Part shown: in pieces, positions 58,302-64,000 of the stretch
How positions within the stretch are numbered: the first letter of the stretch is position 1
How the letters are laid out: each line of letters opens with the position of its first letter
DNA from: a virus
Taxonomy: Duplodnaviria > Caudoviricetes
Direction: 5' to 3' (one strand)
Virus record (IMG/VR): IMGVR_UViG_3300010163_000006
Location: 32,001-96,000 of that record
DNA: 64,000 nt
Made by a program: the position numbers and the translations under genes
Notes under the pieces: generated by a model
Seen by the model: the letters and a program-made list of their open reading frames with translations, nothing else
Told to the model about the DNA's origin: nothing
Database searches by the model: none

Positions 58302-59003
58302 TTAGTCAATGTTAAACAGCTCCATCATCTTCTCAGAGCATGTGTTCAATAGGAACCTTGACATTCCCGGTTTCTCATAACCTTGAACATAATTACAGTT
58401 GTTATACTTCCACAACCTGATGTGCTTGATTATGTCTGTCAGGTCAACGGGATGGCAATCTTCTCTGCATATACAGATATTATCATCCGGATACGCGTGA
58501 TAATACGCTATGGAGTCAACATCTGTGTTGTCCCGGTGCATATGCCCGTGGACGTTTGTATGACATCCAGTGTCTTCCGTAAAATGGAGTGGAACCGATA
58601 TATGACTGAAGAAGATATCCTTGTATCGGATACCATACACGACTTCGTCAAACCCGAGATTCTTATACGAATGGTCAGAGAAGGTATCGTTGTTCCCTCT
58701 GATCATGAACTTGTACTTTCCTGTCAACTGCCGTTCTGCTCGACATCCCAAAAGTTCATATATTGGCATGAATTCGGGTAAATCATCATCAACGAGATCG
58801 CCAAGGAAGATGAATACGTCGTTCTCCCCACATGCCTTGTTTTGCATGCGGATGATGTCTTCCCAATCCTGTTTAAGATAGAACGTACCGGCACTTTTGT
58901 CGTACCTGATTAAATGCCAATCGGTACCTAAGATTACCTTGTTACCGTTCTCGATTGTTGACGTAATGATTTCTGTTATTTCCTGATCCGTATATTTTTT
59001 CAT
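58302..59003 (-). CDS. Calcineurin-like metallophosphoesterase (paralog of 50816..51526)
   Basis: GTDWH, LGDLVD, RGNND, FSH, VHGHMH. Confidence 0.85.
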   Translation of the reverse strand: MKKYTDQEITEIITSTIENGNKVILGTDWHLIRYDKSAGTFYLKQDWEDIIRMQNKACGENDVFIFLGDLVDDDLPEFMPIYELLGCRAERQLTGKYKFMIRGNNDTFSDHSYKNLGFDEVVYGIRYKDIFFSHISVPLHFTEDTGCHTNVHGHMHRDNTDVDSIAYYHAYPDDNICICREDCHPVDLTDIIKHIRLWKYNNCNYVQGYEKPGMSRFLLNTCSEKMMELFNID

Positions 59004-59067
59004 AAAATATTCCTCCTATATTTCGGGAGGGTTTATCCCTCCCGAAATATGTTTTATTATTGTACCT

Positions 59068-59792
59068 TCATTCCAACTGGAGTGAATCTGCGTCTTCCTG
59101 TCTCTGCCTCAACCGTTTCATCGCAAACGCTTCCTGCCTGAGACATTTAATTGTCTTTACGTTTGTGAAATTGTCTGCTGTAACTGCTGCTAATGCAGAC
59201 TTTGTTTCCGCCACTTCAGTTGACCATCCGAAGATCTTGTCAGTTAACATACCCAATGTGAAGCATACAATGACACATATGAACGATATCACTGCCATCC
59301 GCCAATCATACATCGCTTCCTTAACAATCAGAGTACCAAACGGTACAATGAATGGAATCATGTTGATAAATGACATTACGATCATTCCCTTCATTGTTGA
59401 CAGAGATGTTACGGTTCCAAAGATTTTGCCTGATGAAACCCTCTGAATATCTGGCATCTTTGAACGGAGGGTTTTCTCAAGATTGTGATTATACTCGCGA
59501 TCACAACTCTTTGTTCTGTAGGCCTTCTCTGCTGTACGTCCAATAAGTCTCGAAATCAACCACCATACATACAGCATCATTATCGCCCAAAAGATAGTCA
59601 TGCTGAACTGTTTAATCAGCGATGGCTCCTTGAGGTTTATTTTGGATATAAATGCACCTTCCAAAATACACGCGATGATTTTGCCATGAGCAATACCCAA
59701 TCAGGTATTCTCATCAGCCATTTCGACGTTGCGGTTCTTACTTTTTCCGCTGTACGCAACATCTTTGAAATTCTGGTCCTTAACTTTTTCAT
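59068..59792 (-). pseudogene. Frameshifted, truncated ABC exporter transmembrane domain
   Basis: Two overlapping frames joined near 59680; SSGKIFG, YDWRMAVISF, DNFTNVKTIK motifs of the ABC_membrane domain; no ATPase domain. Confidence 0.6.
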
Positions 59793-61092: not shown

Positions 61093-61122
61093 AATAATCC
61101 CCCAAATATTTGGGGGATTATT
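61093..61122 (-). terminator. Terminator closing array 1
   Basis: Perfect 30-nt palindrome AATAATCCCCCAAATATTTGGGGGATTATT with an A-tract on its left (U-tract on the minus strand). Confidence 0.75.
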
Positions 61123-61128
61123 GTCTCT

Positions 61129-61595
61129 TCACCAAGCATCACAAGACTGAACCAAGCCTCACCATGACAGAACTAAAATAAACTATACTTAGCTTCACCA
61201 TCACTCTACATGACGTTGCCTCACCAGTACCAAACAACACAATACCTGACAATATCATACCATGACGATACTTGGCTGAACCATCACGTTAATATACCCG
61301 ACACCACTCAACTTTACCAATACACCACCCACTTCAATACACCTGACAACACTCTACCAATACATGACGGGACTGAACGATGCCACACCAACACATTGCA
61401 TCACCCCACGAAACATGACAAAGCCTTACATTCACTTAACTCTGCAACACTATGCGTAACCTTAACGTTACTGTGCAACTCACAGCTATGCCTTTACTGA
61501 ACATCAGGTCATGTAATACTATATACATACCATCACATGACCTGACTACACCACACTTTAATACGCCACACTTCACTTTACCATGGCTGTGATAT
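61129..61595 (-). repeat. Array 1: non-coding 5-nt-periodic array (minus strand NGY-NN, about 90 units); putative guide-RNA precursor
   Basis: Plus strand parses acc-aa gca-tc aca-ag act-ga acc-aa gcc-tc acc-atg aca-ga act-aa...; starts about 10 nt after the stop codon of the Cas7-like gene. Confidence 0.85.
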
Positions 61596-61605
61596 TTGTG
61601 GCTGA

Positions 61606-62238
61606 TTAGTGTTCTGAAGCATTACCCCCGATTACATTTCCGTCGGCATCAAGCTCTTCCCAGACAAATTTACCCTTTCCACTGTTGCGCCACTGACCCG
61701 TTCCGTGGTAGAATCCATAGTCCAACCATTCACGAACGAGTGTTTCATCTTCATCCACCATACACAGTACGGTGAATTCGTTAGTGGAGCCGACCGGCAC
61801 GGTTTCTGAACATGCCAGTGAAACACGTTCACCCTGTGGTGTGTTGGCTCTTAACGGTCTCTGACACAACGTTATCTCACCATTAACGTTGATGACGGAT
61901 TTGCGTTCCTTGATAAAGATCAGACCGTCTATCTGTTTCTTAAACGCTTTGATCTTTGATGAAGCGGTACCTTTAACCTTTTTGAGGAAACTACAGGTCT
62001 CCTTGAAGTAACCTCGCCACTGATAGTCGTAAATGATCAGATTTCCGTCATCGTCTCTCGGGAATACGGTTGTTCCCTTTTCAACAGTCGGATCAACACC
62101 GACAGATGCTACCTCATCATCGATTGTGGTTGCATCGGGTGACTTCGAAGCGATGTAGCTTCTGTAGATTTCCTGGTCATTGGTTGCTGTGCCAAGCAGC
62201 TCCTCGATAAATGTTACGCGTACTCTGATTTCTTTCAT
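61606..62238 (-). CDS. Stand-alone Cas7/Csm3-like RAMP-superfamily protein (210 aa)
   Basis: RAMP motif order: IRVRVTFIEELLG (beta1), FPRDDDGNLIIYDYQWRGYFKE (P.I.gss.KG..R-like), ETVPVGSTNEFTV (E.v..Gt.F.f), G-rich loop GTGQWRNSGKGKF; AAGGAGG RBS. Confidence 0.75.
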   Translation of the reverse strand: MKEIRVRVTFIEELLGTATNDQEIYRSYIASKSPDATTIDDEVASVGVDPTVEKGTTVFPRDDDGNLIIYDYQWRGYFKETCSFLKKVKGTASSKIKAFKKQIDGLIFIKERKSVINVNGEITLCQRPLRANTPQGERVSLACSETVPVGSTNEFTVLCMVDEDETLVREWLDYGFYHGTGQWRNSGKGKFVWEELDADGNVIGGNASEH

Positions 62239-62341: not shown

Positions 62342-62362
62342 GTCCGGGGATAATCCCCGGAC
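62342..62362 (-). terminator. Intrinsic terminator upstream of the RAMP gene promoter region
   Basis: GTCCGGGGAT-A-ATCCCCGGAC with an A-rich tract on its left. Confidence 0.7.
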
Positions 62363-62377
62363 ATGAAATTCTTCTAT

Positions 62378-62764
62378 TTATGGAGCCGGATATATGACAA
62401 AAGTTTTCAGACCTTTGATCTTGAACCCGCCGTCTTCTGTCGGTTCTCCGAACACTCTTGGGACGGCAATCAATTTGGGATTGTTTGACACAAATTCCTT
62501 GATCATTTTGTCAGATTGGTCAAATTCAACATCTATCCACCCACCAACAAATCCCATATCATAACCAGTTATCACTCCTATGATATCATTTATATCAACT
62601 CTCAAATGTAAAATATCTACTGTTTTACAGTCTGTTCCCTTCACAACCTTCATACCAACCAAACCATGTGTAGATATATGTTTGTATAAGTCTTTAAATG
62701 ATAGACATTCGTTGATTCTGACGGGAATGGTTTTCCTGATCTTCTTAGGGATCCTGACTTTCAT
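62378..62764 (-). CDS. Hypothetical protein between array 2 and the RAMP gene
   Basis: AAGGAG RBS before MKVRIPK; about 128 aa. Confidence 0.6.
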   Translation of the reverse strand: MKVRIPKKIRKTIPVRINECLSFKDLYKHISTHGLVGMKVVKGTDCKTVDILHLRVDINDIIGVITGYDMGFVGGWIDVEFDQSDKMIKEFVSNNPKLIAVPRVFGEPTEDGGFKIKGLKTFVIYPAP

Positions 62765-62791
62765 TAATTTATCACTCCTTTCCATATAATA

Positions 62792-62828
62792 AAAAATAAC
62801 CCCCGTAAGGTGGGAGGAGGTTATTTTT
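62792..62828 (-). terminator. Terminator-like hairpin closing array 2
   Basis: AAAAATAACC...GGTTATTTTT arms around a GC-rich imperfect inner stem. Confidence 0.55.
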
Positions 62829-62840
62829 CTTTAAGATATG

Positions 62841-64000
62841 TCGTTACCATTACTCTACAAGACCCAACTTTGATGAACCATTACTGAACCAAACCGCGCT
62901 TTGCCTTACAACACTTGGCATCGCCGCACCGTAACACCGCTATACTGGGCTGAACTATGCCTTTACGCAACAGCACTATTCGACGCTACACCATAACTTC
63001 ACAATACCCACGCGGTACAATGCGTTACAGGACATAGCCTTTACTGGTACCATTCGACACCTTACCTGCACATGACATCGCCACCTATCACAACACAACA
63101 CCAATACAGAACAATACCGAACGCCACACTACCTTTACGATACATACGAACACGAAGCTCAATATTACTATACTTAACATTACCCGTTACGTGACCATGC
63201 GGCACCTGACCTTACCAAAACATTACTCTACGCCTCCTGGCTTTACCCAAACATTACGCTCGCAGCATTACTGCACCATCACAGCACCATACGTAAACTG
63301 ACTATACATTACCGATACAATACGAATCAGTACGGAACATCACGGAACCCATTACGTAACGTAACGCCACTTGACCGAACTGCACCCTCACAAAACTATC
63401 CCATACTGTACCATTAATGTACACTGCGTGACTAAACACGACTCTACCTGTACTTTACTATGAGCAACGTATCTCCGCTCCGCTTTACCTTTACTAAGCA
63501 TTACCTGGTATTGCTTAACCTTGCCTATACGATACCAAGCGTGGCATTTCTTCACCGCACCGTTTACTCTACATTACTCGACTTCACTCCAACATTACCC
63601 TCACATGGCATCATAAGACCACACTTTACCTTTACGACACCTCACAGAACAGGACCAAACCATGCCTGAACATTACCTTTAGATCACAATACGCGACGAT
63701 ACTTCACCTTACCATTACCAGAGAAAACGTCACCATACCGATACCGCAACCATGCTTCACCTTACTTAACCCTTACTTGGCTTGGCGGAACAAAACTATA
63801 CTATACCGTTACATAATCATACCGCACCCGGCCTTACCCATAACATCACAAAACTTTTCTGTACACTTCCTTTGCGGAAACTATGCCCGACACAGCATCA
63901 CGACACTATACCGGAACGCCACGTCACTCTACGGTACACCACCATGCTATACCAGCACAGTGCATTACTTGACATTGCTTTACCTTACCAATGCTGTACA
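62841..64000 (-). repeat. Array 2: non-coding 5-nt-periodic array (minus strand NGY-NN, over 200 units), running off the window end
   Basis: Minus strand from 64000 reads TGT-AC AGC-ATT GGT-AA GGT-AA AGC-AA TGT-CA AGT-AA TGC-AC TGT-GCT GGT-AT AGC-AT GGT-GG... Confidence 0.88.

Follow-up and report, generated by a model that had tools for sequence, protein, structure and literature searches.

The virus contig studied here carries two tracts of tandem 5-nt units that are best read as tail-less, "staggered" vrRNA arrays of a phage VIPR system. We assign a probability of roughly 60% to this reading, according to which a GG doublet that breaks the 5-nt register every few units would be the point where one filament of the protein Vipr ends and the next one starts, and the module between two such steps would be one short guide. 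The extra base that creates the steps is real and non-random. That the steps are guide or filament boundaries is the best-supported explanation for them, suggested by their conservation, by a sequence motif at the boundary, and by insertions and deletions that tend to fall there.

Organization of the locus

The 155,671-bp contig contains two pentamer tracts (arrays 1 and 2) and no others. The following features are given in positions of the window, i.e., the whole 64,000-nt stretch of DNA that was analyzed, except for the last one, which lies beyond it.

61093..61122, minus strand: terminator-like hairpin with T-run at the end of array 1 (13-pair stem, then TTTTGTAAAG)
61123..61592, minus strand: array 1, 92 units reading GYNNN in the RNA sense, about 12 modules of the form (GYNNN)k+G (semi-Markov parse, lag-5 identity, and spectrum)
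61504-61514 with 61535-61545, minus strand: inverted repeat inside array 1 with an 11-bp perfect core (read from the sequence)
61606..62238, minus strand: vipr, 210 aa (P0001), single-RRM RAMP with the G-loop GTGQWRNSGKGKF (fold and profile comparison)
62342..62362, minus strand: terminator-like hairpin 3' of the 135-aa gene and 5' of vipr
62378..62785, minus strand: 135-aa gene between array 2 and vipr (open reading frame)
62800..62817, minus strand: terminator-like hairpin with T-run at the end of array 2
62828..64000, continuing to the equivalent of window position 64369, minus strand: array 2, 298 units, about 48 modules (parse)
Genome 96373-97677 (L100:473-1777), past the window end, minus strand: 434-aa gene with Sigma-70 region 4 and an RNA polymerase alpha CTD

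Array 1, which includes the region singled out by the original prediction (61161-61495), is a G-poor, C/A-rich, non-coding tract when read on the plus strand. On the minus strand, it starts about 14 nt past the stop codon of vipr. Both arrays and all neighboring genes are on the minus strand. This gene orientation and the position of the terminators point to the minus strand as the likely transcribed strand of the arrays, where each array would be transcribed together with the gene upstream of it and end at an intrinsic terminator. Since the terminator-like hairpins and the neighboring genes are all on this strand, the arrays are most likely GYNNN-repeat RNAs.

The inverted repeat of array 1 (61504-61545) separates a 10-unit block at the 5' end (61546-61592) from the remaining array. 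The pentamer parse is irregular at this position, and the repeat forms the dominant hairpin of the predicted minimum-free-energy fold; this putative element could have a structural or processing role. A search against Rfam revealed no ribozyme or other family between the units, and its sub-threshold matches were on the terminator hairpin only.

Two other genes of the locus are possible candidates for accessory functions. The 135-aa gene had no match in Pfam or PHROG, and its structural neighbors in the Atlas include prohead-protease-like domains (TM of ~0.6), which is a weak lead; it is a possible accessory (vap) gene. Array 2 starts directly after the stop codon of the 434-aa gene, whose domains were identified with E values of 2e-8 (Sigma70_r4) and 4e-17 (RNA_pol_A_CTD). 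This gene may be a DNA-binding accessory (vap) gene of the VIPR locus or a phage transcription factor. Among the downstream neighbors (window 58302-59700, minus strand), we found a calcineurin-like phosphoesterase (PF00149; PHROG 547) and another 210-aa protein, matching an ABC-transporter transmembrane region.

The gene between the arrays encodes a Vipr protein

VIPR, an RNA-guided DNA silencer related to CRISPR, was introduced in preprints of 2026 (10.64898/2026.04.26.720920; 10.64898/2026.04.26.720927). It combines Vipr, a lone ancestral RAMP protein, with vrRNAs built from GGY/NN pentamers. Each repeat is bound by one protomer, and pairing with DNA goes through the NN bases and leaves out every third base of the target (10.64898/2026.04.26.720920; 10.64898/2026.04.26.720927). 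The methods of the discovery preprint also name the repeat variants YNNNG and NNNNG (10.64898/2026.04.26.720920).

The 210-aa protein had no match in Pfam or PHROG, and its homologs form more than 5000 clusters, largely from gut metagenomes and phage contigs. Its AlphaFold2 model (pLDDT of 92) had type VII Cas7 and the type III protein Csm3 as best Foldseek matches (probability of 1.0, TM of ~0.54), and the profile of its family matched type VII Cas7 (E = 6e-5). We then compared the family with the Vipr protein of Escherichia phage SUSP1 (KT454805 28474-29061, minus strand) by hhalign; over 169 columns, the probability was 78.6% and the E value 1.7e-5, and the two G-loops were aligned with each other. 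In SUSP1 Vipr, H17 and D177 contact the first G of the repeat, while W178 and R179 hold the second G and the Y (10.64898/2026.04.26.720920; 10.64898/2026.04.26.720927). In the alignment, the two first-G contacts are changed to T17 and Q182 in the 210-aa protein, whereas the second-G/Y contacts are kept as W183 and R184. These changes fit an array in which G-Y is conserved and the first G of G-G-Y is lost.

Given the Cas7/Csm3-like fold of the predicted model and the alignment to SUSP1 Vipr, the locus is identified as a VIPR system with YNNNG-type repeats. It shows several features of such systems: the predicted model is that of a small RAMP of the single-RRM kind, which has a G-rich loop and a thumb; a pentamer array with fixed and variable positions (G(G)Y and NN, here in the YNNNG variant) lies beside vipr on the same strand; and the minimal locus is encoded by a virus (a virus record in a single contig of 155.7 kb) without a CRISPR array. 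Tandem Repeats Finder detected neither a repeat-spacer array nor direct repeats of CRISPR size in the window.

Other explanations for the association of the gene with the arrays were considered. TRAP-like (G/U)AG repeats, Rho-loading sites, and a DNA helical-phase element were dropped, since the RAMP fold and the VIPR literature explain the gene-array pair. They had come into consideration through the mean period of 5.15-5.19 nt, by which two units span ~10.3-10.4 bp. The system also resembles the filaments of class 1 CRISPR systems (Cas7 or Csm3 on crRNA) in the RAMP fold, the G-rich loop, and the binding of one protomer per short RNA segment. Yet the class 1 filaments have a period of 6 nt with one flipped base, against 5 nt here, and class 1 systems come with repeat-spacer arrays, Cas6 processing, and further cas genes, which do not appear at this locus. 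A class 1 system (type III/VII-like) was therefore rejected, given the 5-nt period with occasional six-nt units, the lack of CRISPR-size repeats, and neighboring genes unrelated to cas.

In a 111-kb phage contig whose Vipr is 71% identical, a gene with a weak precomputed Pfam match to TROVE (Ro60-like; L012:5759-7438) sits a few kilobases upstream of vipr.

A one-base step punctuates both arrays

The 5-nt rhythm is clear in both arrays, with a lag-5 identity of 0.44 (array 1) and 0.43 (array 2) versus 0.25 in a coding control. Neither of them has spectral power at exactly 5.00 nt. The peaks are at 5.12 and 5.24 nt in array 1 and at 5.19 and 5.22 nt in array 2, with a power of 7.2 and 15.9, respectively, versus a maximum of 3.5 in shuffled sequences. 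The autocorrelation rebounds at lags of 26, 31, and 36 nt, not at 25, 30, and 35 nt. With the peaks off 5.00 nt and this rebound, the phase slips are visible without any parse.

We parsed both arrays with a semi-Markov model (HMM) anchored on NNNRC on the plus strand (GYNNN on the minus strand). The approximately 390 units, in about 60 modules, comprise 322 units of five nt, 59 of six nt, 5 of four nt, and 4 of seven nt. The fourth position of the plus-strand unit is A in 78% and G in 17% of the units, and the fifth is C in 92%. In the sense orientation, this corresponds to G at position 1 (92%) and Y at position 2 (96%), while the other three positions are variable. The parse placed the six-nt units and one shorter unit of array 1 as follows (minus strand, plus-strand starts).

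61163, 61199, 61225, 61261, 61282, 61318, 61358, 61389, 61430, 61461, 61492, minus strand: 11 six-nt units, spanning 61163..61497
61582, minus strand: twelfth six-nt unit of array 1
61329, minus strand: compensating 4-nt unit (array 1 parse)

The original prediction had named 11 slips in array 1. Ten of them are the same six-nt units, named 2 nt earlier, and the remaining one, given as 61464, is one unit off. The module that had been given a length of 40 nt holds the compensating 4-nt unit. Among the 11 six-nt units, 10 read cNNNRC and 1 reads ATTCAC. Taking the two arrays together, the first base is C in 93% of the six-nt units, which makes a GG doublet on the minus strand, versus 20% of the ordinary units. 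This bears out the preference for RCC (GGY on the minus strand) that had been proposed for the six-nt units, and the claim that array 2 is punctuated like array 1 held as well when both were parsed together.

The steps are regularly spaced. Intervals of 5-8 units account for 77% of those between six-nt units, versus 25% when the order of the units was shuffled (5000 shuffles, p<2e-4), and the coefficient of variation of the intervals is 0.42, versus 0.88 in the shuffles. The most frequent intervals are 36 nt, with 18 cases, and 31 nt, with 11 cases. Individual intervals range from 1 to 10 units, and some six-nt units are adjacent. Over long distances, the phase is only weakly coherent, with p=0.02 (array 2) and p=0.22 (array 1) in a residual-sd test. 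The pattern is better described by modules of 5k+1 nt than by a strict non-integer period.

Such slips could in principle also reflect chance irregularities, slippage within a loose repeat of pentamers, or a parsing artefact, and the occasional units of 4 or 7 nt and a few irregular stretches are of the kind that these processes would leave. We regard this explanation as extremely unlikely. None of the 5000 shuffles reached the observed coefficient of variation or the observed share of 5-8-unit intervals, the 26/31/36 pattern is present in the parse-free autocorrelation, and the enrichment in G persists when the emission of the extra base is left untrained (the trailing sense base is still G for 61 of 74 extra bases). 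The pattern is also replicated in 62 arrays (see below). The slips are accordingly neither randomly placed nor devoid of GGY enrichment, the two outcomes that would have spoken against punctuation.

Two exact repeats were found inside array 2, one of 26 nt (64251 and 63719) and one of 19 nt (64139 and 63980). The copies of the 26-nt repeat start at a module boundary and span the first four units of two modules, which then diverge; the 19-nt repeat covers three units and has different offsets in its two modules. Judging from these sequences, the modules concerned may carry related payloads, directed to the same or related targets.

The step and its flanking motif are conserved in related arrays

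We scanned 94 related loci, and 93 of them (all except L040) have at least one G-rich 5-nt-periodic tract of at least 150 nt on the strand of the gene, mostly directly adjoining it. The arrays beside 89 related genes were parsed, which resulted in 62 non-redundant arrays with 7,239 units, 1,241 of them of six nt. The extra base is G in 80% of these 1,241 units, while ordinary units have G as their fifth base in 22% of cases. The gaps between steps peak at 26 nt (237), 31 nt (261), and 36 nt (215), and gaps of 5-7 units make up ~61% of the total, versus ~20% expected under a geometric distribution. The punctuation also holds in clades with C or A, instead of U, at the second position of the unit.

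The G is embedded in a wider boundary motif, GYAANG|GRA in the 62 arrays and GUAAUG|GUA as the consensus at this locus. A occupies the fourth position at the boundary in 80% of the cases, versus 33% for interior units, and it is also the third base of the following unit in 71%, versus 41%. The motif most likely represents an end or processing signal. The Vipr proteins of the compared arrays are 49-80% identical, and the G is kept in 80-93% of the steps.

The spacing of the steps allows a different explanation, in which the array is one long guide, or a few of them, and the extra G is a hinge that restores the helical register of a long Vipr filament or RNA-DNA hybrid once per turn without delimiting guides. 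SUSP1 filaments have 6 protomers per turn in the binary complex and 5 in the ternary complex (10.64898/2026.04.26.720920; 10.64898/2026.04.26.720927). Since the steps are most often 5-7 units apart, which is near these numbers, we keep the hinge as a minority alternative, although an unlikely one; the stable, non-integer mean period (5.12-5.19 nt) and the little specificity that a single module contains also favor it. A geometric lock is nonetheless poorly compatible with spacings that vary from 1 to 10 units and with adjacent six-nt units, and the weak phase coherence over long distances also argues against it. Furthermore, the boundary motif restricts bases that should be free NN positions if the guide continued through the step, and a G in the register of the upstream module followed immediately by an anchor G looks like an end plus a start.

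Insertions and deletions tend to fall at module boundaries

Comparison of related arrays revealed 19 distinct pure indels, 11 of which can be placed exactly at module boundaries, versus 4.7 expected (binomial P ~0.002). Their junctions carry a microhomology of 4-32 nt, which usually includes the boundary motif. The breakpoints of replacements are barely enriched, with 26% of them within 3 nt of a step versus 20% for random positions. The expectation that differences between strains fall at module boundaries is thus borne out for pure indels and hardly for replacements. The arrays of the closest relative (P0002), which is present in four samples, are identical across samples.

The whole-module size of many indels and the microhomology at their junctions are also what one would expect if the steps were neutral scars of array growth by module-wise insertion, duplication, or recombination, with no role in the RNA. 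This explanation is highly unlikely in our view, since a neutral scar is expected to decay, whereas the G, the spacing, and the flanking motif are kept across unrelated payloads and divergent proteins. Internal duplications are also few, with 14 exact repeats of at least 16 nt in the 62 arrays. The suggestion that the steps are scars of module-wise acquisition does not, on its own, account for such conservation of the G, nor for replacement breakpoints so near the random level.

GG steps as probable filament boundaries

Based on the SUSP1 structures, the pentamer G-Y-N-N-x would be the footprint of one Vipr protomer, which would grip G and Y and display the NN bases so that they can pair with DNA. 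A module would then consist of (GYNNx)k plus one anchor G, with a length of 5k+1 nt, where k is mostly 6-7 at this locus and 5-7 across the family. The terminal G would be in register with the upstream module, and the next G, one base further on, would start the register of the downstream module. Because the two anchor Gs are 1 nt apart and neighboring protomers need a spacing of 5 nt, the GG step would have to end one Vipr filament and start the next one, whether the RNA is cut or stays intact. With the filaments separated by the step, each module would be one short guide of about one helical turn. The original prediction had proposed boundaries of individual guides of about 4-8 units, and this remains the best-supported reading, with indirect evidence from the VIPR locus, the conserved step and spacing, the boundary motif, and the indels.

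Some observations count against separate guides. With 5-7 units per module, 10-14 nt are specified, and fewer still if the flanking units serve as handles; such modules are short compared with the 9-16 repeats of characterized vrRNAs; the replacement breakpoints are, as seen above, hardly enriched at the steps. In a more unusual reading, the arrays of the YNNNG clade would stay uncut, like beads on a string, and the working unit would be a mini-filament of one turn, with 5-7 Vipr protomers. We consider this quite unlikely. If true, specificity would come from many short guides acting side by side or tiled on the target, and the GG step with GYAANG|GRA would be a start/stop signal for filaments instead of a cleavage site. 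Such multi-guide recognition would be a mode undescribed for the characterized VIPR types.

Search for targets

The modules were also used to search for targets. With rules specifying NN, NNx, NNxx, NNxxx, or NNN, the real arrays performed no better than shuffled ones in 1.8 Mb of sequence, where the sole excess came from 5-nt-period rules picking up unmasked array remnants. We then searched sequence collections for the exact NNx patterns of the two longest modules (9 and 10 units), which have 18-20 specified bases. The 10-unit module had 0 matches in viral_contigs, 2 in genome_contigs, and 4 in the metagenome collection, and the 9-unit module had 2 in viral_contigs; all these numbers are at chance level, and no natural target emerged from the searches. 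None of the matches that were checked for extension ran into flanking modules. Their locations are also implausible: the viral matches were in two large virus contigs, one of them labeled GVMAG, and the match in a Firmicutes MAG ran antisense to a housekeeping-type gene, where the skipped base did not coincide with the wobble position. Scoring the NN dinucleotides by codon-position likelihood separated the six possible readings by less than 0.2 bit per unit, too little to be informative.

Relation to described VIPR arrays

The discovery preprint distinguishes "staggered arrays," in which the ends of the vrRNAs overlap by 1 nt, according to the legend of its fig. S18 (10.64898/2026.04.26.720920). 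Going by this legend, the punctuation described here probably corresponds to these staggered vrRNA arrays. The resemblance includes a lone small RAMP gene in a phage, tandem pentamers on the same strand, and a fixed G-Y with variable bases. It extends to the continuous, tail-less arrangement, where no tail separates the units and a one-base offset of their ends lets each end mark where the following unit begins: each (GYNNN)k+G abuts the following anchor G. The modules of 26, 31, and 36 nt, the motif GYAANG|GRA, the enrichment of indels at boundaries, and a repertoire of about 60 modules and 390 units go beyond what this accessible text says of staggered arrays (10.64898/2026.04.26.720920). 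Small-RNA sequencing confirmed the other two vrRNA layouts only, not the staggered one (10.64898/2026.04.26.720920).

The type II VIPR system of phage SUSP1 (KT454805) shares with the present one a homologous Vipr, the G-loop, the conserved W-R pair, and pentamers beside the gene. SUSP1 has four separate vrRNAs of ~100 nt, each with 14-17 GGYNN units in a single register, a structured 3' tail, and no six-nt steps. In contrast, the arrays described here have no conserved first G, no tails, and a +1 shift of register every 5-8 units. A later preprint describes motifs of the WGT/NN type, repeated ~10 times (10.64898/2026.10.21.760802). Our arrays are similar in their unit, x-G-Y-N-N, where x is usually U or A and Y is usually U, and in their position beside a protein with a Vipr-like fold. 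They differ from the ~10 repeats described there, and we found no mention of register steps in that preprint (10.64898/2026.10.21.760802).

Implications

The locus is a good new example of a known VIPR layout and not a new kind of system, and the punctuation leaves the picture of the VIPR system itself unchanged. Its value lies in being a large and clean phage example, with about 390 units and about 60 modules, of the layout that the authors of the preprint left without experimental confirmation. The comparison of related arrays provides rules for calling guides across the family: modules of (GYNNN)k+G, k of 5-7, and the boundary GYAANG|GRA. Two predictions follow for the biology of these systems. 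The ends of the RNAs or of the filaments should lie between the two Gs of the step, and a Vipr without the first-G contacts (T17 and Q182 in their place) should be paired with repeats that have lost their first G.
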